A stretch of DNA of 24,000 nt. It comes from Caloramator mitchellensis (GTDB lineage Bacteria > Bacillota > Clostridia > Clostridiales > Caloramatoraceae). Of the stretch, positions 830 to 24,000 are shown in pieces. The notes below the pieces were generated by a model. That model had not been told where the DNA came from. It saw nothing but the letters and a program-made list of their open reading frames with translations, and did not search any database. The stretch spans positions 194,845-218,844 of the forward strand of contig NZ_LKHP01000002.1 of NCBI RefSeq assembly GCF_001440545.1, written 5' to 3'. The stretch's first letter is position 1. Every line of letters starts with the position of its first letter. The translations under genes and the position numbers were made by a program.

Positions 830-2068
830 ATGATTAAACTTGATTCTCACGATTTACTTTCAGCTTTAAGTTTGGCAATTGATTTATCTGAATGCAGCTC
901 ACATTGTGAGGAAAAATATTATGAACCTACATTTAATATAAATTTATCTCAGCACAAATTCATAAACCATTCTAAGAGGACAACCTATGTTGCAATGAGC
1001 ATTGGGAAAAATATATCCAATGATACATCATTCTTGAAATTTTTATTTATAAGCGCCGCTCTTCATGACATAGGCGTTACTGGAACTGCAGACCTTTTAG
1101 ATGCACATTTGAAAAGTGAATATATATTAAGGCATAGTGAAGAAGGAAGTTTCCTAATAGATAAATTACCTATGGACTATAAAATTTCACAGGCTATTAA
1201 ATATCATCATGAAAACTATAACGGAACTGGTCCATTTGGTTTAAAAAATGATGAAATTCCACTAATCTCTCAAGTTTTGAGGATATCAGATTCATTTGAG
1301 CTTATATATGATGAAAATATCCCAAATTATATCCAGAGGGACTTTATATCCAAATTTTTTAAAACACATAAGGGTATTTACTTTAACCCCCACCTTATCG
1401 ACATACTTTTCGAATTGCAATCAAAGGAAAAATTCTGGTGGGATGTTGAAAACATAGGTCATATTCCAGAAATATACGATTCAATAAAGCCTGAAATAAC
1501 TAAAACATTCTCAATGCAGGAAATAAGAAAAATTGCCTATGTATTTGCAGACATAATTGACAAGAAAAGCCCATTTACCTATACACACTCGAAAAACCTT
1601 ACAAAAATAGCATTGAGAATTGCCGATTACTTAAATTTTGATAAAAACAAAAAGATAAGATTTGAGATAGCTGCTCTAATGCACGACGTTGGAAAACTTG
1701 CAATACCCAATTCTATCCTCAATAAAGAAGGTCCATTAAATCCAAAGGAAGTATTGATAATGAAAAGCCATACTTATTATACAAGGTTAATTTTATCAAG
1801 AATTAAAGGATTTGAAGATATAACAGATTGGGCGTCAAACCACCACGAAAAATTAAATGGACATGGCTATCCTTTAGGCTTATCCGCTGATAAACTTTCG
1901 ATGGAAGAGAGAATAATGGCTGTTTGCGACATTTATGAAGCATTGACATCGGACAGACCCTACAGAAAAGGTATGTCAAACGACAGAGCAATTGAAATAC
2001 TTAAGAAGATGGTAGATTTAAATGAAGTCTGCCCCATAGCGCTTGAATATCTGAAAAAAGTTTTGTAA
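830..2068 (+). CDS. Tandem HD-GYP domain protein (putative c-di-GMP phosphodiesterase). The N-terminal domain is degenerate and the C-terminal domain is canonical.
   Basis: The C-terminal half has LMHDVGKLAIP, NHHEKLNGHGYPLGL and CDIYEALTSDRPYRK. The N-terminal half has ALHDIGV and YHHENYNGTGPFGL, with GYP replaced by GPF. RBS AAGGGTGA lies upstream of the ATG. Confidence 0.85.
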   Translation: MIKLDSHDLLSALSLAIDLSECSSHCEEKYYEPTFNINLSQHKFINHSKRTTYVAMSIGKNISNDTSFLKFLFISAALHDIGVTGTADLLDAHLKSEYILRHSEEGSFLIDKLPMDYKISQAIKYHHENYNGTGPFGLKNDEIPLISQVLRISDSFELIYDENIPNYIQRDFISKFFKTHKGIYFNPHLIDILFELQSKEKFWWDVENIGHIPEIYDSIKPEITKTFSMQEIRKIAYVFADIIDKKSPFTYTHSKNLTKIALRIADYLNFDKNKKIRFEIAALMHDVGKLAIPNSILNKEGPLNPKEVLIMKSHTYYTRLILSRIKGFEDITDWASNHHEKLNGHGYPLGLSADKLSMEERIMAVCDIYEALTSDRPYRKGMSNDRAIEILKKMVDLNEVCPIALEYLKKVL

Positions 2069-2116
2069 GCTGCCTTTATCTAGAAGCATTTAATTTATTA
2101 AGCCATTACACTTTAA

Positions 2117-2155
2117 AGTCCCAAGATAAATTTTTAAAAAATATATCTTGGGACT
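2117..2155. terminator. Bidirectional hairpin between the convergent HD-GYP and ribU genes
   Basis: Perfect 12-bp arms agtcccaagata / tatcttgggact (2117-2128, 2144-2155) around an AT loop. The flanks are T/A-rich on both strands. Confidence 0.55.
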
Positions 2156-2162
2156 GATTATT

Positions 2163-2759
2163 TTATTTGTGTAATATAGGCGAAACCCTTTTGTAAATTA
2201 AAATTGTTACTGCGGATGCTATAAGACCCTTTACGAGATTAAAAGGCAATATGCTATAAACGATAAGAGTGTTTATATCCTTAATTGCAGGGTTAACCTT
2301 TGCTGCAATACCAACAATAGCATCAATAGGAAAATGTAATACTTTTTCATATAATGGAAGGAATATATAATAGTTTAAAAGTGAAGCTGTAACTCCCATT
2401 GAAATAATTCCACAAATCACTGCATAAATTGCACCTGTCTTCGTTTTATTCTTTCTGTAAATCAATGCAGCAGGCAATACAAAAGATACACCAACTAAAA
2501 AATTTGCCGCCTCACCTATTCCAGCCGTTTGATTCTTAACAGCAAAATGAATTAAATTTTTTACAAACTCAATCATAATTCCCGCCATTGGTCCTAATGC
2601 AAATGCACCAATCAGTGCAGGAACATCGCTTAAATCGATTTTTAAAAAGTCCGGGAAAATTGGCAATGCAAATTCAAAGAACATTAAAATTAGTGCAAAA
2701 GCCGAAAGAAGTGAAACTTTGATCGTCTTTGATAGATTTTTTGATTTAATTTTTTCCAT
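2163..2759 (-). CDS. ribU: ECF-transporter S component for riboflavin (RibU/YpaA family)
   Basis: Starts at internal Met46 of the listed ORF (MEKIKSKNLSK...) with RBS GGGGAGG. It is a multi-TM protein with FPDFLKIDLSDVPALIGAFALGPMAG and ILPFNLVKG, which resemble B. subtilis RibU as I recall it. An FMN riboswitch lies directly upstream. Confidence 0.8.
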   Translation of the reverse strand: MEKIKSKNLSKTIKVSLLSAFALILMFFEFALPIFPDFLKIDLSDVPALIGAFALGPMAGIMIEFVKNLIHFAVKNQTAGIGEAANFLVGVSFVLPAALIYRKNKTKTGAIYAVICGIISMGVTASLLNYYIFLPLYEKVLHFPIDAIVGIAAKVNPAIKDINTLIVYSILPFNLVKGLIASAVTILIYKRVSPILHK

Positions 2760-2762
2760 AAA

Positions 2763-2910
2763 AAAACCTCCCCTTTTTTTCAGGGCAGGAGAATAAATAA
2801 ATATCCTCTTCCATCCAGACTTTACTGTCGGCTCTGGAATCACACCAGATCTGCCTTTCGGCTCGCGGGCTTTACCGCCGGTCGGGAATTTCACCCTGCC
2901 CTGAAGATAT
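2763..2910 (-). promoter_or_regulatory. FMN riboswitch (RFN element) with expression platform
   Basis: The minus strand reads ATATCTTCAGGGCAGGGTGAAATTCCCGACCGGCGGTAAAGCCCGCGAGCC...GGTGTGATTCCAGAGCCGACAGTAAAGTCTGGATGGAAGAGGATAT. This carries the conserved RFN core blocks. It is followed by CTCCTGCCCTGAAAAAAAGGGGAGGTTTTTT, which can pair with and occlude the RBS or terminate transcription. Confidence 0.9.
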
Positions 2911-2950
2911 CTAAATATATGTTATCAAATTATCAACAAATATTCAATAT

Positions 2951-3643
2951 CTATTCCCTAAATTGTTTTAAAAAACCATTCATATCCCTAATTCTAATGT
3001 ATTTTCTTTGAGTTTCGATTATTCCTTTTCTTTTAAGGCTAGAAAAAATCCTTGAAACAGTTTCTCTAGTTAAGTTTAATGCCTTTGAAATATCTCCCAT
3101 ATTCACATCAAATTCAACAGATACATCTCCATTTGCCTCGATTCTTCCAAACTTCTGAACATTTTCAAGGACAAAATTTAATAATACTTCCTTTGCATCA
3201 TTGAGCATCAACATTGAATTTCTATTTCCCTGAGTTCTTACCGAATTCATAACTATATGCGCAGCTAGTTTACGCAACTCCTTAGATTCATCTATTTTTC
3301 TTCGTAGGTATATTGCATCAACAGCGTAGATAATACAACCGTTCAACGCCTTATACGTAGCTATTTCAGGAAGCTCAAAGTATGACGAATATCCAAAAAA
3401 CTCGTCTTGCATAACATATCCAATTGAATATTCATCACCCTTTTTGTCCTTTTTTATTATGATTACCTTCCCGCTGTCAAGATAATATATATATTCATCC
3501 CTATAACCTTCTTTTATTATATCTTCGCCCTTAAAATATATTATTTTTTTATAGTGTCCCTTTAATTCCTTATCAAATAGTTTCCTATAGTTATTGCTCT
3601 CCCCCATCTTGATGAAAAGCAATTCTTTTTGTAAAACGCTCAT
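2951..3643 (-). CDS. Crp/Fnr-family transcriptional regulator (cNMP-binding domain plus C-terminal HTH)
   Basis: 230 aa with an N-terminal beta-barrel-like region and a C-terminal HTH, GDISKALNLTRETVSRIFSSLKRKGII. Confidence 0.8.
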   Translation of the reverse strand: MSVLQKELLFIKMGESNNYRKLFDKELKGHYKKIIYFKGEDIIKEGYRDEYIYYLDSGKVIIIKKDKKGDEYSIGYVMQDEFFGYSSYFELPEIATYKALNGCIIYAVDAIYLRRKIDESKELRKLAAHIVMNSVRTQGNRNSMLMLNDAKEVLLNFVLENVQKFGRIEANGDVSVEFDVNMGDISKALNLTRETVSRIFSSLKRKGIIETQRKYIRIRDMNGFLKQFRE

Positions 3644-3873
3644 AAATAATTGCCCCTTTATAGTGTTCTATCACTAATTTTATCGACCTCTACACTAAAA
3701 AGTTTACATTAAATTAAAGCTCCATGATTGATTTCCTTGGTTTCGCTCATTTTGCCAAGTAATTCTAAACTTTTGTTTGTTTTCGAAAAGCAAGAATTAC
3801 TATGGTTTATGAAATGCGCTTTTAAAAATCAAATCATGGGGCTTTCAAGATACTTATATTCTAATATAACCTT

Positions 3874-7130: not shown

Positions 7131-8066
7131 TTAAAACATATCCTTCTTAGCAAGAAGGTATGTTACGCCACCAGACATGATAGCAATAATCAATAATACA
7201 AGGTAAAAACCGAACGGATTATCTCCAAATGGAACAGGAACATTCATTCCAAAAAGTCCAGAAACCATAGTTGGAATTGAAAGAACTATAGTAATTGAAG
7301 CCAAAAACTTCATTACTATATTCAGGTTATTTGAAATAATCGAAGCAAATGCATCCATAGTTCCGCTCAATATATTGCTATATATATTTGCCATTTCAAT
7401 AGCCTGCTTGTTCTCAATGATAACCTCTTCTAAAACGTCCTGGTCCTCTGGATATTTTTGCATCATCTCAAGTTTAAGCATCTTTTCAAGAGTTATTTCG
7501 TTGGATTTTAAAGAAGTTGAAAAGTAAACTAGGCTCTTTTCAAGAGATAATAGCTGTATAAGCTCTTTATTCTTCATTGATTTGTGAAGCCTTGCTTCTA
7601 TAATATGGCTTGTTTTGTCTATCTGCTTAAGATAACATAGATAATAGGATGCTACTTTATAAAGTATTTGAAGTATAAATCTTGATTTTTTAAACGTATA
7701 GAATGACTTAACTTTTTTTGCCACAAAATCATCAATCACCTTGTTTTCCTTTAAGCAGATAGTTACGATGAACTTATCGTTTAAAACAATACCTAATGGA
7801 ATAGTATAATATTGCAAAGACTTATCCTTAACATCCATAACAGGTATGTCGATTATGACTGAAGTTTGGTCTCCGTCGATTTCAATTCTTGAGCTCTCCT
7901 CTTCATCAAGCGGAGCTCTTAAAAATTCAATCAAAAGACCAGTCTTTTGCGATACATACTCAAGCTCAGTCTCATTTGGATTTGTAAGGCTAACCCAGCA
8001 GCCGTTTTCGATGCCATCGATTTCAAATGTCTGACCATCGACATTGGTCTTGTATATCTTTAACAT
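7131..8066 (-). CDS. corA: CorA-family Mg2+/Co2+ transporter
   Basis: 311 aa with two C-terminal TM helices and the GMN signature (LFGMNVPVP). RBS AAGGAG lies 7 nt upstream of the ATG. Confidence 0.87.
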   Translation of the reverse strand: MLKIYKTNVDGQTFEIDGIENGCWVSLTNPNETELEYVSQKTGLLIEFLRAPLDEEESSRIEIDGDQTSVIIDIPVMDVKDKSLQYYTIPLGIVLNDKFIVTICLKENKVIDDFVAKKVKSFYTFKKSRFILQILYKVASYYLCYLKQIDKTSHIIEARLHKSMKNKELIQLLSLEKSLVYFSTSLKSNEITLEKMLKLEMMQKYPEDQDVLEEVIIENKQAIEMANIYSNILSGTMDAFASIISNNLNIVMKFLASITIVLSIPTMVSGLFGMNVPVPFGDNPFGFYLVLLIIAIMSGGVTYLLAKKDMF

Positions 8067-8379: not shown

Positions 8380-9756
8380 ATGAAGAACATTTTGAGCTTA
8401 ATATTTACCCTAATGCTGTTTTTCCAAAGCATTGCATATGCAAATGCATTTAATCCACAGAATGTGTATAACACGATAAGAGAACTAACCCAGGATAAGT
8501 ATGCTGGAAGACTTGCTGGGGATAAAGGAAATGAACTTGCCTGTGAATATGTGAATAAAAAATTTTTAGAAGCTAAATTGCAACCCCTTGGGGATAATAA
8601 ATCCTTCTATCAATATTTTACCGCATATGTTCCTTTTGTTGAGGGGGATATTTCCTTCAAAGTTTTTAATGGTGAAAAATTAGTTAAGGAATACGCCTAT
8701 GGTATTGATTATAAGGAAATATATACAGGGGCATCCGTTGGAGGGTTTGTAAGAGGCAAATTATATTCAGATGAAACCTCAAAGGGTGAGATTTATATTG
8801 GAGTGGATTATCCCTATGAAACGATGTCGACCTATGAATTTGATAAGACCCTTGCAGGAAAGGGAATTAAAGCTGCACTCTATTTTTCTGAAAGGCCTAT
8901 GAACTTTAAAAGCACATATAAAATTCAAAATGAATATAAAGAAGGGCTCATTAAGCTATTGATTGATTCAAGGTTATATGAAGAAATAAGAGATTTTTCA
9001 GATAAGGGATACATATTTGAAATAAAAAGCCCTGTAAAAGTTAAAAAAGTTAAAACAAAAAATATAATTGGAGTTAAAAAAGCTGCATCCTCTGAAAAAC
9101 CACCTATAATTTTTTCCGCCCATATAGACCATGTGGGATACGATGCAGGAGGAAGAATATACCCTGGTGCCCTTGATAATGCCTCAGGTGTTGCATTCAT
9201 GCTTGAAATATTAAACGTTTTAAAGGACGTTGAAACTAATAGAGATATAATTTTTATAGCATTTAACGCTGAAGAGGAAGGACTTATCGGCTCATATTAT
9301 TTTGTTAACAGGCCACCAATAAACATTGAAAATGCAGAATGTATAAACTTTGATATGATTGGCTCTCCAAAGGAAATTCCTCTATCTGCCCTGAGCTCCA
9401 GCCAAAGAAGCGATGAACTTAGTGCATTTGTTAATGAGCAAAACCTTAACAGATTATACGAAGACAACAGCGACCATGCTCCATTCAACATGAGAAACAT
9501 AAGCGCTGTTACGCTCATACATGACGATATGGAAAAGATTCATACAACATTTGATACCATTGAAAATATAGATGTTAAGAAAATAGAAGAGGCATTCGAA
9601 ACTATAGAAAAATATTTATTAGAGCGAGGCATCTTATTGACGAAACCTGAAGAACAGGAAAATGCTAAAAACACATATTTGATTTATGTAGCACTAATCC
9701 CTATTCTTGCTGCAGGTGTATATATTGGTATCAATAGAAAAAAATTTCAAATATAG
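8380..9756 (+). CDS. M28-family zinc aminopeptidase, secreted or membrane-anchored
   Basis: Signal-like N-terminus. M28 metal-ligand blocks are SAHIDHVGY, PGALDNASGVAFMLE, FNAEEEGLIGSYYF, NFDMIG and SDHAPF. There is a C-terminal TM helix. RBS is GGGGTGAGGA. Confidence 0.82.
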   Translation: MKNILSLIFTLMLFFQSIAYANAFNPQNVYNTIRELTQDKYAGRLAGDKGNELACEYVNKKFLEAKLQPLGDNKSFYQYFTAYVPFVEGDISFKVFNGEKLVKEYAYGIDYKEIYTGASVGGFVRGKLYSDETSKGEIYIGVDYPYETMSTYEFDKTLAGKGIKAALYFSERPMNFKSTYKIQNEYKEGLIKLLIDSRLYEEIRDFSDKGYIFEIKSPVKVKKVKTKNIIGVKKAASSEKPPIIFSAHIDHVGYDAGGRIYPGALDNASGVAFMLEILNVLKDVETNRDIIFIAFNAEEEGLIGSYYFVNRPPINIENAECINFDMIGSPKEIPLSALSSSQRSDELSAFVNEQNLNRLYEDNSDHAPFNMRNISAVTLIHDDMEKIHTTFDTIENIDVKKIEEAFETIEKYLLERGILLTKPEEQENAKNTYLIYVALIPILAAGVYIGINRKKFQI

Positions 9757-9764
9757 CTTATTAT

Positions 9765-10118
9765 TTAATATAACTTGCATTTATTTCTCCATAGATAATA
9801 CAACACTATTATTTGTGGCAACAAAATTAGTATTGCTCTTAAAATTGTAACTACATTTATACCCTCAGCAAGAAAATTTAGAACAAGTATTAATATAAGC
9901 AATACCAATACTAAAACATTCATTGAAAGCAAAGAAAAAAATGCCCTGCTTTTTCTTTTATAAATTCCTACCCCATTAATTGCAGTCATAAGCCCAAATA
10001 TAAAAATCAGAAGACTATATATGTCTATATCTTTATTCAGAAAGCCAATGAATAGATTCGGAATAGTCATTATACAAATAAATAAGCCATAAGCTATTAT
10101 CACAAAAGTAAACTTCAT
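9765..10118 (-). CDS. Small hydrophobic membrane protein, function unknown
   Basis: About four predicted TM helices. The start at Met12 of the listed ORF (MKFTFVII...) has RBS GGTGGTGA. The listed start at 10151 has none. Confidence 0.5.
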   Translation of the reverse strand: MKFTFVIIAYGLFICIMTIPNLFIGFLNKDIDIYSLLIFIFGLMTAINGVGIYKRKSRAFFSLLSMNVLVLVLLILILVLNFLAEGINVVTILRAILILLPQIIVLYYLWRNKCKLY

Positions 10119-10185
10119 TTTTTCACCACCATTATTTTCCATATATTTCAATTATAATATATAGCATAATCAATTACAACTTTAA

Positions 10186-10225
10186 AAGCCTCTATTGGGA
10201 TATCTTTTTCACCCAATAGAGGCTT
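10186..10225 (-). terminator. Intrinsic terminator after prfB
   Basis: Perfect 14-bp stem AAGCCTCTATTGGG / CCCAATAGAGGCTT, starting 3 nt after the prfB stop and followed by TTTAAA on the minus strand. Confidence 0.6.
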
Positions 10226-10228
10226 AAA

Positions 10229-11339
10229 TTACTTCTGGCTTTCGGATTTTAAATATGCGTTTATGAACTCATCTATTTCTCCATCCATTACTGCCTGGAT
10301 GTTACCTATTTCAACGCCTGTTCTGTGGTCCTTAACAAGGGTGTATGGCTGGAATACATAGCTTCGAATTTGGCTTCCCCATCCTATATCCTTCTGGTCA
10401 CCTGTTAAGTCCTCAATCTTTTCTTTTCTTTCTCTTTCCTTCATTTCAATGAGCTTTGACTTTAGCATCTTCATAGCCATTTCCCTGTTGGAATGCTGGC
10501 TTCTTTCTGTCTGGCAGGATACAATTATTCCGGTTGGAATGTGGGTAATTCTAATCGCAGATTCAGTCTTGTTTACATACTGACCACCTGCACCGCCTGA
10601 CCTGTAGGTATCAATCTTTAAATCCTCATCCCTTATTTCTATATCCTGTTCTTCTGTAATTTCAGGCAAAACTTCAATTGATGCAAAGGAAGTGTGCCTC
10701 TTTCCTGCTGCATCAAAAGGAGAAATTCTAACAAGCCTGTGAACTCCCTTTTCTGCCTTTAAATAACCATAGGCATATTCTCCTGTTATCTCAAGAGTAA
10801 CGCTCTTTACCCCTGCTTCGTCACCAGGCAGAAAATCCACTGTCTCAACCTTGTATCCTTTTCCTTCTGCCCACCTTGTATACATTCTAAGGAGCATCGA
10901 TGCCCAGTCGCAGGCTTCTGTTCCGCCTGCACCAGCGTGAATAGTCAATATTGCGTTGTTTTTATCATATTCACCAGAGAGCATTGTTTCAATTCTAAAT
11001 GCTTCTATCTTTTTTTCTATGTCCACTCTCTCATTTGTTATTTCTTCAAGATGTGAATAATCCTCTTCCTCATCACAAAGTTCAATAAGAACCTCAAGGT
11101 CTTCAACCCTCTTAAGAAGGCTCTCATACCTGTCTATCTTATCCTTAATGCTCTTTGCTCTTTGAACAACCTTTTGAGCCTCTTCTACATTGCCCCAGAA
11201 GTCTGCGTCCTGCATTTTTTCCTCAAGCTTTGCGTGTTCTTCCTTTAACTTAGCGATGTCAAAGAGAAGCCCCCACTTCGTTTAGGATTTTCTTCATTGG
11301 TTCAATCGCTGAATAATGTTCTTCGAATTGTAAATGCAT
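10229..11339 (-). CDS. prfB: Peptide chain release factor 2, expressed via a programmed +1 frameshift. Frame 0 is 11339-11262 and the +1 frame is 11260-10229.
   Basis: The listed ORF carries the SPF and GGQ motifs (RISPFDAAGKRHTSF, SGGAGGQYVNK) but lacks the N-terminus. Upstream, ATG at 11339 (RBS AGGAAGGTGA) encodes MHLQFEEHYSAIEPMKKILNEVGASL and then CTT TGA C, preceded by an internal SD-like GGGGG. Shifting +1 at CTT-T reads DIAKLKEEHAKLEEK into the listed ORF. Confidence 0.93.
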
Positions 11340-14765: not shown

Positions 14766-14974
14766 GGCACTGATTAGCTGACCTGGTCTTTGACCCCACA
14801 CTCGCCTGCTGGAAGTTTTGCTCAAGGTGGTATGCCTCTCACTAATCCTTCTCTCGGTTTTCCCGGCAGGACTTACTTCTAAACCGCACCATGCTCATCA
14901 GACCTTATCTGACTTACGTGGATCGTTTCGCCTGCGGCTGGCATCGACTTTCAACCACAGACCTAATCAGCGCC
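14766..14974 (-). ncRNA. Structured ~209-nt ncRNA, best candidate the raiA-motif RNA (comFC-raiA/hpf intergenic class)
   Basis: A GC-rich island in an AT-rich genome. A closing helix forms between GGCGCTGATTAG (5') and CTAATCAGTGCC (3'). Internal local hairpins include GTGG..TCG..GCC-AGCCGCA-GGC-GAAA-CGA..CCAC and CCTGC/GCAGG. No coding potential is apparent. It lies between comFC and hpf, the context reported for the raiA motif, and a T-rich run follows the 3' end. Confidence 0.6.
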
Positions 14975-19470: not shown

Positions 19471-19989
19471 CTATTCTAATAACTTTTTGATATCGTAAAT
19501 CTCCCTTAAAAGTAAATATACGTCTTCTTTAGTTGCAGGAAGTTTAAGGTCAAAGTTTACGCATAAATCACTTGATTTAATCTCCCTTTTTAAGATTCTT
19601 ACCAAATTTGTTCTTTTCAAAACAGCCCTTTGGCTTTCTATATAATATATTTTTTGTCCATCCTTTAAAACTATATGTCCCTCTTCTATTTTATCAATAA
19701 AATTGAAATTAATATAGCCATAAACTTCATCTCTTGAAACTTTTGGTTTTCTAATTTTAATTGGAAACATTATTTCATCTTTACTAAATAATAGAGGAAT
19801 AATATTGCTTTGCCCAACAGTTTTTCTGCTTTTTCTTTTAACTTCTTTAAAATCCAGCATCCTTTCCCTGCATATATTTTTCAATACCTGATTTATCTTA
19901 ATTTCATACATTTTTTCAACACCATCCTCTTTTACTATGCATCCATCGCCTATGTTTTTCATATATTGAGGTATAACATACAATAACAT
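19471..19989 (-). CDS. Small protein with weak ComK-family resemblance (tentative)
   Basis: 172 aa with RBS GGGGTGGGAA. The blocks IIPLLFSKDEIMFPIK, YGYINFNFIDKIE and IVLKDGQKIYYIESQRAVLKRTNLVRIL align loosely with ComK blocks as I recall them. It is the first gene of the recD2-comF operon. Confidence 0.4.
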   Translation of the reverse strand: MLLYVIPQYMKNIGDGCIVKEDGVEKMYEIKINQVLKNICRERMLDFKEVKRKSRKTVGQSNIIPLLFSKDEIMFPIKIRKPKVSRDEVYGYINFNFIDKIEEGHIVLKDGQKIYYIESQRAVLKRTNLVRILKREIKSSDLCVNFDLKLPATKEDVYLLLREIYDIKKLLE

Positions 19990-20127: not shown

Positions 20128-21345
20128 TTGACAAGATTTAAGAATAACTATTTTCTCAATAATTTAAATGGAGTTTTGCAAATAATTGCAGTTAATTTAG
20201 CCACGGGATTTGCTGGATTGTTTTTGAAGCGATTAAACGCAGGGGATGAGCTTGTATCGCTTTTTAATTCTCTGCCTGCCTTTTTCAGCATACTGGCTAT
20301 TTTTATCGGTGGAATGGTTTTAAGCTCGACAAAAAATAAAAAAAAGGCAACCTCATATGCCTTTTTAACCACAAGGTCATTTTATCTTCTAATGGCGCTT
20401 GTTCCATTTCTAAATCAAAATTATAGGGCGCTTTTGTTTGTAATTTTATACAGTGCAATGAGCTTTCCTAACTCAATTGCTGTTTTCCTATGGCAATCCT
20501 TCATAGCAGATATATTCCCACCTGGAGAAAGGGAACAGAGCCTATCATCAAGAAATAGCATTGCAACAATTGCAGGAACAGCTACTACCCTTATTGCCGG
20601 ATTTTTGCTATCTTCTCTTTCCAAATCAAAATCCCAGCTCATTAGCTTTTACCAGGTTGTATTTATAATCGCATTTATATTTGGAATTATAGAGGTTTTT
20701 ACCCTTTTAATGCACAGAGATAGCAAGCACTCGCAGTTTGCAGAAATTTCAACCGAACAAAACAGGATTTCAATTGACTTTATTAAAAATCTTAAGCATC
20801 AAAGAGAATATCTTATATTTATAATAAGCGTCATTATATTCCATTTCACATGGCAAATGGCATGGCCATTATTTTTAACCTACGAAGTCGATTATCTTCA
20901 TACAAATGAATTTTGGACTTCTATTATTTCGACTATAAACGGACTTGCAATGGCATTTGGATATAGATTCTGGGGACGGTTCTCAAGAAATAAGGGAAAT
21001 TCAATTGCTCTAACTATATCTGCAATCGGTATTTCACTTGCACCATTTTTATATTCAATCTCTACTAAGATTTACCATGTAACATATTTTGTAGCAATTA
21101 CAGGCTTTAGTGTCTCAGGAGTTCTGCTTCTTCTTATAAACTCACTCTACGAAGTTGCTCCAAGGGAAAACAGAACCTCCTACATCGCCTTTTACAACCT
21201 GGTTACAAACATAACCCTTTTTATTTCTCCTTGGATTGGGATGCAACTTTCCCATATTACATCCATCAAAACCGCTTTCATTATAGTAGGCTTTTTAAGA
21301 ATACTCTCTGGCTTAGTATTCCTCCACCGCCACAAAATCACCTAG
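20128..21345 (+). CDS. MFS-family transporter
   Basis: 405 aa and about 12 TM helices. TTG start after GGGGGTG. The candidate promoter has an extended -10, TGTTATAAT (20093-20101). Confidence 0.78.
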   Translation: MTRFKNNYFLNNLNGVLQIIAVNLATGFAGLFLKRLNAGDELVSLFNSLPAFFSILAIFIGGMVLSSTKNKKKATSYAFLTTRSFYLLMALVPFLNQNYRALLFVILYSAMSFPNSIAVFLWQSFIADIFPPGEREQSLSSRNSIATIAGTATTLIAGFLLSSLSKSKSQLISFYQVVFIIAFIFGIIEVFTLLMHRDSKHSQFAEISTEQNRISIDFIKNLKHQREYLIFIISVIIFHFTWQMAWPLFLTYEVDYLHTNEFWTSIISTINGLAMAFGYRFWGRFSRNKGNSIALTISAIGISLAPFLYSISTKIYHVTYFVAITGFSVSGVLLLLINSLYEVAPRENRTSYIAFYNLVTNITLFISPWIGMQLSHITSIKTAFIIVGFLRILSGLVFLHRHKIT

Positions 21346-21361
21346 GGACGGTTCTCAATTT
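21343..21361 (+). repeat. 19-mer TAGGGACGGTTCTCAATTT, copy 1 (includes the MFS stop codon)
   Basis: Exact match to copies 2 and 3. A 20th base (T) is also shared with copy 3. Confidence 0.95.
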
Positions 21362-21369
21362 TATCTTCT

Positions 21370-21388
21370 TAGGGACGGTTCTCAATTT
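21370..21388 (+). repeat. 19-mer TAGGGACGGTTCTCAATTT, copy 2 (direct, 27-bp period)
   Basis: Exact match, read directly from the sequence. Confidence 0.95.
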
Positions 21389-21410
21389 ATTTTAATCCAC
21401 GAAAATTTCG

Positions 21411-21443
21411 ACAAAACAAAAGCTCAAGGCATTTGCCCTGAGC
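21411..21443 (-). terminator. Intrinsic terminator after the yvrJ-like gene. It may also serve the convergent MFS gene.
   Basis: The minus strand reads GCTCAGGGC-AAAT-GCCTTGAGC (one G-U pair) followed by TTTTGTTTTGT. Confidence 0.6.
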
Positions 21444-21444
21444 T

Positions 21445-21579
21445 TTAATTCTTAAATCCTTCAATTGTTCTTGATAGCTCATTTATGCTATCCGTTAATT
21501 TTTCCAATTTACCCTCAACCCTTACAAGAAGGTAAATCGATAAAACTATAGGAAATCCAAAATTAGCTATCTGATTCAT
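21445..21579 (-). CDS. YvrJ-family small membrane protein (44 aa), not in the ORF track
   Basis: Own translation: MNQIANFGFPIVLSIYLLVRVEGKLEKLTDSINELSRTIEGFKN. It has one hydrophobic helix followed by a charged helix, as in YvrJ proteins. It sits last in the DUF1659-DUF2922 operon, the usual partner arrangement. Confidence 0.6.
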   Translation of the reverse strand: MNQIANFGFPIVLSIYLLVRVEGKLEKLTDSINELSRTIEGFKN

Positions 21580-21602
21580 TATGGTGTCCACTCAATCACC
21601 TT

Positions 21603-21818
21603 CTATCTTACGTTAAATTCAGTAACATCCCTTGCAACAACATTAGCACTCATTGCTGCAATTAAATCTCCTCCTGTTGTTTCAAATATATTCTTTGAAA
21701 TTATAAGCTGCATAAGGCTTCGTATCTCTTCAACTGTAATTCCATCCTTTACATAAGGTATGTTAACGGATACGTTCTTTCCTGCCTGGTTTTGAAAAAC
21801 CATTTGAAGAGTCTTCAA
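21603..21818 (-). CDS. DUF2922-family small protein
   Basis: KTLQMVFQNQAGKNVSVNIPYVKDGITVEEIRSLMQLIISKNIFETTGGDL is typical of DUF2922. The likely start is TTG at 21818, 8 nt after GGAGG. The listed GTG at 21827 lies inside the SD. Confidence 0.7.
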   Translation of the reverse strand: MKTLQMVFQNQAGKNVSVNIPYVKDGITVEEIRSLMQLIISKNIFETTGGDLIAAMSANVVARDVTEFNVR

Positions 21819-21850
21819 TCTACTCACCTCCCACTTAGATTAAATTTAAA

Positions 21851-22075
21851 TTATAGATTTACAAGCTCTGCAAAATCCTGTCTTATAACGTTGTTAAGTG
21901 GTCCTTCTAAAATCCCTGCTAACGCTTGCGTTATTGCAAACACATCATCATTTGTAGCGTTGGCCTTAACTTTTCTTAAAGTTATAGCTCTTTCGATGTC
22001 GCTTCCGTTCTGGTCAACTCCAATTTTAACTCTTAAAACTACATTTGAAGTAAGTTGTAATGCACTAACTGCCAT
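21851..22075 (-). CDS. DUF1659-family small protein
   Basis: MAVSALQLTSNVVLRVKIGVDQNGSDIERAITLRKVKANATNDDVFAITQALAGIL... The start at Met8 of the listed ORF has RBS AAAGGGGGTGA. Confidence 0.7.
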   Translation of the reverse strand: MAVSALQLTSNVVLRVKIGVDQNGSDIERAITLRKVKANATNDDVFAITQALAGILEGPLNNVIRQDFAELVNL

Positions 22076-22150
22076 TCTCTCACCCCCTTTCACCATATAA
22101 ATAGGGGGTAGAAAATAATATTACACATTTAAATTGTTGCAGATGTAAAA

Positions 22151-22169
22151 AAATTGAGAACCGTCCCTA
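22151..22169 (-). repeat. 19-mer TAGGGACGGTTCTCAATTT, copy 3 (inverted)
   Basis: The plus strand reads aaattgagaaccgtcccta, the exact reverse complement of copies 1 and 2. It abuts the T-tract of the metK terminator. Confidence 0.95.
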
Positions 22170-22202
22170 AAAAAAAATAAGCCGCCTCATATGAGGCAGC
22201 TT
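22169..22202 (-). terminator. Intrinsic terminator after metK
   Basis: The minus strand reads AAGCTGCCTCA-TA-TGAGGCGGCTT (11 bp, one G-U pair) followed by ATTTTTTTTT. Confidence 0.75.
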
Positions 22203-22204
22203 AT

Positions 22205-23392
22205 TTACATTTCAGCTACTGCTTTTTTGATTTCTTCAACTTTGTCTAATCTTTCCCATGGAAGGTCAAGGTCTGTTCTTCCAAAGTGGCCATATGCTGC
22301 AACTTGTCTGTAGATTGGTCTTCTTAAGTTAAGATTCTTTATTATTGCAGCTGGTCTTAAGTCGAATACCTTGTTTACTATGTCAACAATCTTATCATCA
22401 GGAAGTTTTCCTGTTCCAAATGTTTCAACTTCTATTGAAACTGGTCTTGCAACACCTATAGCGTATGCAATTTCAATTTCAAGTTTTTCTGCTAGTCCTG
22501 CTGCTACAAGGTTTTTAGCAACCCATCTTGCTGCATAAGCTGCTGAACGGTCAACCTTTGTTGGGTCCTTTCCTGAGAAGGCGCCACCGCCGTGTCTTCC
22601 GTATCCGCCGTATGTGTCAACTATTATCTTTCTTCCAGTTAAACCTGAGTCTCCGTGTGGTCCTCCAACAACAAATCTTCCTGTTGGGTTTATTAAGTAT
22701 CTTGTGTTTTCATCTAAAAGATTAGCAGGAACAACCTTTCTTATAACATGTTCAATCATGTCTCTTTCGATTTGTTCCCTTGTAACCTCTGGGCTATGTT
22801 GTGTTGAAATAACTATAGTGTCAACTCTAACTGGCTTATCATCATGGTATTCAACAGTTACTTGAGTTTTTCCATCTGGTCTTAAGTAATCAACTGTTCC
22901 ATTCTTCCTAACTTCTGAAAGTCTTCTTGATAGTTTGTGTGCAAGTGCAATAGGAAGTGGCATAAATTCTGGTGTTTCAGTGCAAGCAAATCCAAACATC
23001 ATGCCTTGGTCTCCAGCACCTATTGCTTCAATAGCATCCATCTCTCCCTTTTTTGCTTCTAGAGCCTTATCAACACCCATAGCTATATCAGGTGATTGTT
23101 CATCTATAGCTGTTAAAACTGCACATGTGTCAGCATCGAATCCATATTTAGCTCTTGTATATCCTATTTCTTCTACTGTCTTTCTAACTATTTTTGGAAT
23201 GTCTACATAACATTTAGTTGAGATTTCTCCCATAACTAAAACCATACCTGTTGTAACGGCTGTTTCACAAGCAACTCTTGCCTCTGGGTCTTCTGCTAAA
23301 ATAGCATCAAGAACTGCGTCTGAAATCTGGTCGCAAATCTTATCTGGATGTCCTTCTGTAACTGATTCTGATGTAAATAATCTTTTTACCAT
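22205..23392 (-). CDS. metK: S-adenosylmethionine synthetase
   Basis: 395 aa with [32 protein letters not shown] and [22 protein letters not shown] is AAGGAGG. Confidence 0.97.
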
Positions 23393-23510: not shown

Positions 23511-23650
23511 AAAAAAACCCCTTCTGACAAGAAGAGGCACAATTTCTATCCTCATCTCCCAGAATGTAATCATTCTGCAGGAATTGGCACCTTGCATTAT
23601 GCAGGTTGCCGGGTTTCATTGGGCCCGTCCCTCCACCTCTCTGGATAAGT
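23511..23650 (-). promoter_or_regulatory. SAM-I riboswitch (S-box) with intrinsic terminator in the metK leader
   Basis: The minus strand reads CTTATCCAGAGAGGTGGAGGGACGGGCCCAATGAAACCCGGCAACCTGCA...TGCAAGGTGCCAATTCCTGCAGA...GGGAGATGAGGA, which carries the S-box core blocks. A terminator follows: CCTCTTC-TTGTCA-GAAGGGG plus TTTTTTT (23511-23537). Confidence 0.9.
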
Positions 23651-23686
23651 TTTACTTATCATATTCTGTTTTCTTGACAATAAAAG

Positions 23687-23756: not shown

Positions 23757-23842
23757 TGGTGGAGCGGGGTGGATTCGAACCACCGAAGGCGTCTGCCAAC
23801 AGATTTACAGTCTGCCCCCTTTGGCCACTCGGGAACCACTCC
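23757..23842 (-). tRNA. tRNA-Tyr (GTA), class II with long variable arm, CCA encoded
   Basis: GGAGTGGTTCCCGAGTGGCCAAAGGGGGCAGACTGTAAATCTGTTGGCAGACGCCTTCGGTGGTTCGAATCCACCCCGCTCCACCA folds manually as a cloverleaf. Confidence 0.92.
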
Positions 23843-23845
23843 ATG

Positions 23846-23921
23846 TGGAGCCGGCTATAGGACTTGAACCTACAACCTACTGATTACAAGTCAGTTGCTC
23901 TACCGGTTGAGCTAAGCCGGC
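23846..23921 (-). tRNA. tRNA-Thr (TGT), CCA encoded
   Basis: GCCGGCTTAGCTCAACCGGTAGAGCAACTGACTTGTAATCAGTAGGTTGTAGGTTCAAGTCCTATAGCCGGCTCCA. The acceptor, D, anticodon and T arms all pair. Confidence 0.92.
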
Positions 23922-23926
23922 GTATA

Positions 23927-24000
23927 TGGTGGGCACAATAGGGCTCGAACCTATGACCCTCTGCTTGTAAGGCAGATGCTCTCCCAGCTGAGCTATGCGC
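23927..24000 (-). tRNA. tRNA-Val (TAC), 5' end truncated by about 2 nt at the window edge
   Basis: ..GCGCATAGCTCAGCTGGGAGAGCATCTGCCTTACAAGCAGAGGGTCATAGGTTCGAGCCCTATTGTGCCCACCA. Confidence 0.85.

Follow-up and report, generated by a model that had tools for sequence, protein, structure and literature searches.

Three exact copies of a 19-mer, TAGGGACGGTTCTCAATTT, bracket a small operon of DUF1659, DUF2922 and YvrJ genes in a 24,000-nucleotide (nt) stretch of the Caloramator mitchellensis genome (contig NZ_LKHP01000002.1, positions 194,845 to 218,844 of the forward strand). This whole stretch is hereafter called the window, and positions are counted from its first letter. The reading we favour, to which we give a probability of roughly three in four, is that the 19-mer represents the outer arm in a repeat family of the REP (repetitive extragenic palindrome) and REPIN (REP doublet forming a hairpin) type that belongs with REP-associated tyrosine transposases (RAYTs), and that the copies in the window are stray singlet arms around an ancestral operon. 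The pattern in the window is real but ordinary: its type is the known REP/REPIN-RAYT one, and its sequence family is new. The arms, the operon and their immediate surroundings are arranged as follows.

20973 to 20986, + strand: 14-nt core GGGACGGTTCTCAA, in frame inside the major facilitator superfamily (MFS) gene (residues WGRFS); exact core match
21343 to 21361, + strand: arm copy 1, a singlet outer arm; exact match to TAGGGACGGTTCTCAATTT
21370 to 21388, + strand: arm copy 2, in tandem with copy 1 at a 27-nt period; exact match to TAGGGACGGTTCTCAATTT
21419 to 21446, - strand: hairpin of the terminator that separates the convergent yvrJ and MFS genes; also conserved in the related locus L013
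21445 to 22075, - strand: resident operon DUF1659/DUF2922/YvrJ, bracketed by the arms; Pfam matches and synteny
21591 to 21445, - strand: YvrJ gene; Pfam match
21827 to 21603, - strand: DUF2922 gene; Pfam match
22075 to 21851, - strand: DUF1659 gene; Pfam match
22151 to 22169, - strand: arm copy 3, in the opposite orientation to copies 1 and 2; exact match to TAGGGACGGTTCTCAATTT
22175 to 22206, - strand: metK intrinsic terminator; stem 22206 to 22175 plus T-run

An exact search of the window returns the three copies at the positions and on the strands given in an earlier note on this DNA, and no further match to TAGGGACGGTTCTCAATTT appears in the window at up to 3 mismatches. The recurrence is beyond chance, as that note held, with zero matches among 100 dinucleotide-preserving shuffles. 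The note's description of the 827-bp span between the outer copies, as three small minus-strand genes and a terminator, is also accurate, and the window holds neither a recombinase open reading frame (ORF) nor a RAYT gene, in line with its report of no recombinase or transposase. Copy 1 does supply the TAG stop codon of the MFS ORF (20128-21345), and copies 1 and 2 lie between that stop and the yvrJ/MFS terminator hairpin. Copy 3 directly follows the T-run of the metK terminator, again as noted earlier, and is placed between that T-run and the DUF1659 leader. In the resulting layout a tandem pair of arms faces a single inverted arm at a distance of 796-823 nt, and the outer ends of the span both read TA/GGGAC...GTCCC/TA. 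The earlier note saw no obvious target-site duplication; no clean filled-versus-empty pair shows one, and the outer ends are flanked by TA on both sides. The window arms have no inner arm and there is no GGGAC besides that in the three copies; local DNA folds reach only about -2 kcal/mol. Rfam covers the arms with no family at either gathering or permissive thresholds.

Comparison with related genomes separates the arms from the operon. MFS homologues put the window in the Caloramator/Thermobrachium group, and a recurrent gene order is found in its relatives: RecD2, a 172-residue (aa) ORF, MFS, the convergent YvrJ-DUF2922-DUF1659 genes, and metK. The arms found at the two ends of the operon are these.

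Window: two arms at the MFS end; one singlet at the metK/DUF1659 end
L013 (95% MFS identity): one arm at the MFS end; the contig stops before the metK/DUF1659 end
L014 to L016 (78% MFS identity, C. australicus-like): none at the MFS end; a full doublet before each of two DUF1659 copies
L056 and L057 (C. fervidus): none at the MFS end; none at the metK/DUF1659 end
L058 to L063 (another Caloramator species): none at the MFS end; none at the metK/DUF1659 end

In a more distant organism (L064) the operon also lies near metK and the motif is absent. None of the loci L056 to L064 contains the motif, even at 3 mismatches, and both C. fervidus and L058 lack an arm at the spot orthologous to copy 3. 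At the other end, the C. fervidus MFS protein ends in ...RHKIS followed by an arm-free TAA, and a 16-nt gap with the shared hairpin leads to yvrJ; the window MFS protein is of the same length and ends in ...RHKIT followed by the TAG of the arm. The single arm of L013 sits where copy 1 sits in the window, and copy 2 is absent from L013. In L014 the doublet consists of GGGACGGTTCTTAATTTTTT, an 8-nt loop and the complement, ~30 nt upstream of each DUF1659 copy. The orientation of the operon relative to metK is identical in every assembly compared.

Inspection of relatives at the MFS-metK junction, a check that the earlier note had proposed for strains lacking the segment, shows the arms absent from C. 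fervidus and L058-63 and the operon present there in the same orientation. Because it occupies the same place and orientation in species without any arm, the operon is an ancestral resident at this site and not cargo. The most economical history would have the arms enter both intergenic gaps after the split from C. fervidus, on the branch that gave rise to the window, L013 and L014. The two DUF1659 copies of L014 stem from a segmental duplication of 636 bp (7360-7993 and 9738-10373, the same as L051; 97.5% identity) that takes in part of yvrJ, DUF2922 and DUF1659. The arm doublet lies at the upstream edge of this duplication, and three extra ORFs (78, 53 and 129 aa) lie between the copies.

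The same comparison bears on the proposal that a recombinase flips the segment between the inverted 19-mers. Only the inverted geometry favours such an invertible switch. No recombinase is present in the window and a single orientation is seen in every related assembly examined; inversion would also bring no obvious change of expression, because promoter, genes and terminator all lie inside the segment. In addition, 19 bp is too short for efficient homologous inversion. This second explanation of the earlier note is therefore not borne out, and we rank it as the least probable of those considered.

Outside the syntenic sites, the 19-mer behaves as a dispersed repeat. A scan of one genome per species finds the exact sequence at 12 genome loci, which belong to several Omnitrophota metagenome-assembled genomes (MAGs; two loci each), a Planctomycetia MAG and several Clostridia, among them the isolate Caloramator australicus RC3. 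Another 30 loci with the exact 19-mer come from scanning metagenomes with TAGGGACGGTTCTYAATTT. Under a uniform-composition estimate, about 4 matches to a 19-mer are expected by chance in the one-genome-per-species collection. Most of the genome-scan matches are nevertheless non-random, because arms are paired, contigs of the same MAG recur, and placement is intergenic. Genes beside the non-syntenic motif loci are unrelated housekeeping genes. Among all loci fetched, DUF1659/DUF2922/YvrJ homologues are confined to the syntenic sites, and ~40 other motif loci are without them; what is found is essentially a dispersed intergenic repeat unconnected with this operon, the outcome that the earlier note had named as refuting its interpretation.

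Most copies form nested palindromes of 72-96 nt, arranged as TA-GGGACGGTTCTCAATTT, loop, AGAAGTGTCCC, loop, GGGACACTTCT, loop, TTGAGAACCGTCCC-TA. More than 20 distinct elements of 48-96 nt have DNA folding energies of -12 to -32 kcal/mol, so that short palindromes of the kind that mark a REP/REPIN family are present. TA precedes 52 of the 68 distinct arms and CA or TG the others, a proportion to be read with the fact that many arms were chosen by a TA-containing search pattern. Tandem direct arms, as in copies 1 and 2 of the window, also occur in L006, L046 and Acetoanaerobium noterae, and are a trait of the family. A simple 27-bp tandem duplication was considered for copies 1 and 2 and rejected, as the flanks fit neither an A-B-A-B nor a B-A-B-A pattern.

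The 14-nt core inside the MFS gene was likewise considered as a source of the arms or as a fourth site. In relatives this 14-mer carries 1-3 mismatches and drifts synonymously, while the intergenic arms stay exact. Both roles were rejected because of this synonymous drift, and the match is probably a coding look-alike that arose by coincidence, though a 14-mer match is a priori unlikely.

Several other copies have surroundings of their own. In C. australicus (L011, 5523-5541) and a matching metagenome genome (L039, 7022-7040), the 19-mer lies inside a microcompartment shell-gene cluster, where it again gives the TAG stop of the upstream gene, 41 nt ahead of the next gene. At four loci from one Clostridia-labelled MAG and a metagenome (L007 3433-3843, L010 1-499, L042 325-700, L048 1-264), the 19-mer stands between TGTACAC and GTGTACA and is followed by a repeat family built of GGGCGAAATGCCTTTCGCCCCTAC units. 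In the C. australicus-like locus L045 (2802-3013), an arm pair 212 nt apart surrounds AT-rich non-coding DNA, and ~2 kb around the pair (1687-3692) contain no ORF of at least 60 aa. A possible transposase beside the L004 element was set aside, since it has no Pfam match. A plasmid search with the palindromic element returned only irrelevant inner-stem matches on enterobacterial plasmids, and a viral scan with a 17-mer returned two matches, both apparently in coding sequence and probably due to chance. A text search of the literature for the core found no description, only unrelated eukaryotic papers in which the matches were taken as incidental primer sequences.

The link to transposase genes comes from three loci (L038, L041 and L052) in which outer and inner arms, in inverted orientation and 606-623 nt apart, enclose one ORF of 161-163 aa. 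This ORF matches Pfam Y1_Tnp and passes the NCBIfam equivalog REP_Tyr_transpos (NF047646) with 80.4-88.1 bits against a cut-off of 80 bits; its score on the IS200 model is no more than 26-30 bits. The HUH motif (PNHVH) and the Y-I-E-x-N-P tyrosine region are preserved when 18 members are aligned. The sole match of its profile in the PDB is 4ER8, the E. coli TnpArep protein (E = 6e-6). Because of the Y1_Tnp and NF047646 matches, the HUH and tyrosine motifs and the 4ER8 match, the enclosed ORF can be identified as a RAYT, and all three loci show the inverted repeat copies around the gene that are typical of RAYTs. RAYT genes flanked by inverted REPs have been described before (PMC2817692). The short palindromes, built like MITEs (miniature inverted-repeat transposable elements) or REPINs, are the ends of the RAYT units without the gene, which is the relation known between REPINs and RAYTs (PMC3116915, PMC2817692).

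The protein family is large: one search gave 1143 relatives at E <= 1e-20, and at E <= 1e-3 there are 35,277 cluster representatives. Among the 120 top homologues and the 10 best cluster representatives at 50% identity, all those that bear a name are Omnitrophota. In L038 and L041 the RAYT gene occupies the same position beside a phosphoglycerate mutase gene, and L028 and L052 share a flank. These shared positions and flanks fit vertical inheritance of the RAYT gene at a fixed site, as RAYTs have been described (PMC5581495). An IS630/Tc1-like MITE, of the DDE type and with a TA duplication, was rejected as the source of the arms: the enclosed genes are Y1 transposases, and TA flanks are frequent but not constant.

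A clostridial counterpart was sought as the cognate RAYT; an example from A. noterae was found in the plasmid collection, and none for Caloramator. The A. noterae gene, which is RAYT-like and was located by tblastn of that collection in a 2.63-Mb replicon, encodes a protein with 41% identity over the match to the L052 RAYT. The RAYT model is its best family at 73.7 bits, yet this score is below the cut-off. The gene lies between perfect 25-nt inverted repeats, AATCATTAGGGACGGTTCTTTTTGA and its complement, which contain the TAGGGACGGTTCT core, and a second tandem arm is present 20 nt upstream. The gene is flanked by a pair of direct arms and, ~890 nt away at its opposite side, by a single inverted arm, a layout that corresponds to the two tandem arms and one inverted arm of the window. 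The GGGACGGTTCT core is thus common to RAYT units with proteins of only about 40% identity.

A 55-nt query with both arms matches 33 places in the A. noterae replicon. In the 300 kb fetched, 25 arms fall within 47 kb around the gene and 0 in the next 200 kb, a crowding that suggests very local spread. Most of these arms belong to palindromes of 75-126 nt that retain the last ~50 nt of the RAYT coding region, and only the A of the arm head is constant. The arms at 376-423 kb (L067, L068) are in record NZ_CP154629.1, which is labelled a plasmid and is almost unannotated.

The likeness to RAYT units also favours the first explanation of the earlier note, in which the inverted repeats are the ends of a mobile cassette. 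In its present form this would be an 827-bp non-autonomous unit whose cargo has replaced the RAYT gene and which is moved by a RAYT in trans. The layout mirrors that of the RAYT units, with inverted arms 606-623 nt apart around the gene; the A. noterae arrangement around its gene resembles that of the window at 796-823 nt; and TA/GGGAC...GTCCC/TA stands at both outer ends. However, the operon is in place and in the same orientation in arm-free species, so the block does not come and go as a unit, and in L014 it occurs without an MFS-end arm. Among all loci fetched, no second copy of the unit was found, since its small proteins are confined to syntenic sites, and the ends lack the subterminal hairpins used by Y1 transposases. 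The arm-free syntenic sites largely refute the cassette, which we hold to be highly improbable. What survives of the proposal is that the 19-mer is a terminal arm of a mobile element, as seen in the RAYT units and palindromes; the 827-bp segment itself is not a cassette.

The third explanation, in which the arms are operator or promoter elements of a dedicated regulator of the operon such as an alternative sigma factor, draws on the genes themselves. SigS drives sroAB in Staphylococcus aureus and SigO-RsoA drives yvrJ in Bacillus subtilis, and in other Firmicutes alternative sigma factors target DUF1659/DUF2922 pairs and yvrJ (bioRxiv 10.1101/2022.10.19.512975; PMC8103513). Arm 3 is just upstream of a possible TTTACA-18-TGTAAT promoter, and the L014 motif is about 30 nt upstream of both DUF1659 copies. 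Nevertheless, no -10 partner at a fixed distance is common to the window and L014. The proposal fails because the motif is missing upstream of the orthologous operons in three other lineages and because elsewhere, in other phyla, it flanks RAYT genes and unrelated housekeeping genes. Dedicated regulation through the arms is very unlikely.

The reading of the 19-mer as a RAYT-family arm would account for these patterns as follows. The RAYT, an HUH/Y1 enzyme acting on single-stranded DNA, would recognize and spread the repeats. In the full form an arm would pair with an inner arm or with a second outer arm into a hairpin, and two inverted hairpin ends would enclose a RAYT gene or only a short spacer. 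Here, three singlet arms would have settled in the only two gaps beside the operon, one at the MFS stop codon and one after the metK terminator. The bracketing would then reflect where such repeats settle, with no unit moving, flipping or being regulated through the arms. The place of the 19-mer in the repeat family, the connection with RAYTs in other genomes, the ancestry of the operon here and the orthologous sites without arms are shown by the comparisons; we infer that the window arms have no role of their own and that their perfection reflects recent or continuing RAYT-dependent copying and not a host function.

Several observations weigh against this account. First, the arms in the window are hairpin-less singlets without the structure on which RAYTs are known to act; the hairpin is what RAYTs are known to bind (PMC3479197). 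Second, no RAYT is present in the 24-kb window or in any Caloramator locus fetched. Third, the arm head is (T/C)AG instead of the usual unpaired GTAG of REPs, so that the sequence family has a variant head in place of the conserved GTAG/CGTC. Fourth, exact copies per genome are few (1-4 seen), far under the numbers of classical REPs. Fifth, one operon is flanked by every arm found in the 24 kb, and two diverged relatives both carry arms at the metK/DUF1659 spot; with this clustering and repeated occupancy, the arms may have a local role. Finally, the arms do not decay as neutral relics would. Between the window and L013, 157 of 405 MFS third codon positions differ (39%) and the spacer beside the arm cannot be aligned, while the arm is identical at 19/19 positions. 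A rough estimate of neutral survival for the 19 arm bases is about 0.61^19, or ~1e-4. Because the arm is intact while third positions and spacer have diverged, recent insertion, homogenization or selection is needed. Either a RAYT encoded outside the window is still depositing arms or homogenizing them against a master copy, or selection maintains them. The number of MFS-end arms also differs between these close relatives (two in the window, one in L013).

Selection is the basis of a further alternative, exaptation, in which REP-derived singlets now serve the host by binding a protein, by insulating the operon from metK or MFS read-through, or as parts of promoters. The exact identity of the arm between the window and L013 despite 39% third-position divergence and an unalignable spacer is in its favour, as is the retention of an arm after the metK terminator in both the window and L014, whose MFS proteins are 78% identical. 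In E. coli, integration host factor (IHF), gyrase and Pol I are known to bind REPs (PMC2817692, PMC3479197). TTGAGA is part of the arm, and copies 1 and 2 in tandem yield a sigma-70-like TTGAGA-16-TAAAAT on the minus strand. This predicted promoter is directed antisense into the MFS gene and not toward the operon, however, and the orthologous operons of C. fervidus, L058-63 and L064 do without arms. The number and form of the arms vary between close relatives, and an identical arm lies beside unrelated genes in other genomes. We regard exaptation as unlikely. The promoter-like match itself (window 21358-21385, minus strand; 10/12 matches) is formed jointly by the tandem arms and points into the MFS 3' end.

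It is rather unlikely that the singlet arms are not debris but are kept perfect through continued use by a RAYT or a host protein. If they are, a thermophilic clostridial lineage would harbour an active RAYT-repeat system that shares its 19-nt recognition arm, base for base, with elements of Omnitrophota and Planctomycetia. This would imply cross-phylum transfer of RAYT systems, which are usually described as vertically inherited, and would mean that arms can spread or persist as hairpin-less singlets at gene ends, for example as the stop codon of an MFS gene or as a shield of the DUF1659 operon from metK read-through.

For annotation, the operon is an old resident beside metK and the 19-mers are best labelled as RAYT-family repeat arms. 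The RAYT-linked family with the GGGACGGTTCT core extends to Omnitrophota, Planctomycetia and Clostridia, groups barely represented in the REP/REPIN literature searched. One arm conserved at 19/19 bases across phyla, together with A. noterae derivatives within about 50 kb of the transposase gene, offers leads on DNA recognition and spread by RAYTs and leaves the general picture of such systems unchanged.

Near the operon, the DUF1659 leader (window ~22074-22118, minus strand) forms a strong hairpin (-20.8 kcal/mol, z = -3.8), with ACCCCC paired to the GGGGG of the ribosome-binding site. C. fervidus and L058 share the CCCC/GGGGG pairing, but their folds are no better than those of shuffled sequences. 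The leader hairpin may exert translational control of the operon. The 172-aa ORF between RecD2 and MFS (window 19471-19989, minus strand) has no Pfam match, and its position is conserved across the Caloramator relatives. Rfam matches at gathering level identify the following additional features of the window.

2799 to 2912, - strand: FMN riboswitch
14769 to 14971, - strand: raiA RNA (193 bits)
23549 to 23651, - strand: S-adenosylmethionine (SAM) riboswitch in the metK leader
23760 to 24000, - strand: three tRNA genes, the last cut by the window end

Among known systems, the geometry that the earlier note proposed, small genes between inverted terminal repeats, is that of mobile insertion cassettes. 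These elements, such as MIC231 of Bacillus cereus, carry cargo genes between transposon ends and have no transposase. Unlike them, the segment in the window is not present or absent as a whole: the operon occurs without the repeats in relatives. Insertion sequences (IS) of the IS200/IS605 group and their MITE-like derivatives share with the present family a Y1/HUH transposase, hairpin ends and short derivatives that consist of ends only, although those of A. noterae retain the last ~50 nt of the RAYT coding region. The two groups differ in their proteins, which here reach 80-88 bits on the RAYT model against 26-30 bits on the IS200 model, and in their ends, which are true inverted repeats here and asymmetric in IS200/IS605.

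The closest parallels are RAYT systems. As in the REPIN-RAYT system of Pseudomonas (Bertels & Rainey 2011, PMC3116915; PMC5581495), long hairpins arise from inverted doublets, related organisms carry a RAYT gene at a fixed site between the same ends, and intergenic copies include singlets alongside doublets. Unlike that system, the head is (T/C)AG in place of GTAG or GTGG, each half in turn forms a hairpin of two arms, the copy numbers seen are low, an identical 19-nt arm occurs in three phyla, and the window has only hairpin-less singlets. The REPs and bacterial interspersed mosaic elements (BIMEs) of E. coli with TnpArep (PDB 4ER8; PMC3479197, PMC2817692) agree with the present family in the aligned HUH motif and catalytic-tyrosine region, and the TAGGG start here resembles the GTAGGG REP heads listed in PMC2817692; the protein similarity is distant (E = 6e-6), however, and the stem and loop sequences are unrelated. 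Longer terminal repeats flank some RAYTs and go with repeat families of moderate abundance (Di Nocera et al. 2013, PMC3733652), and Clostridia contain Group 1 RAYTs whose flanking 16-mers are low in copy number (PMC5581495). The units described here resemble both in being bounded by inverted repeats of at least 25 nt and probably in having derived short palindromes in tens per genome, as the 33 matching places of A. noterae and the clustering of arms near the gene suggest. The sequence family itself is not described in either paper (PMC3733652, PMC5581495), and the 19-mer of the window may be placed with it as a further member of the known REP/REPIN-RAYT type.

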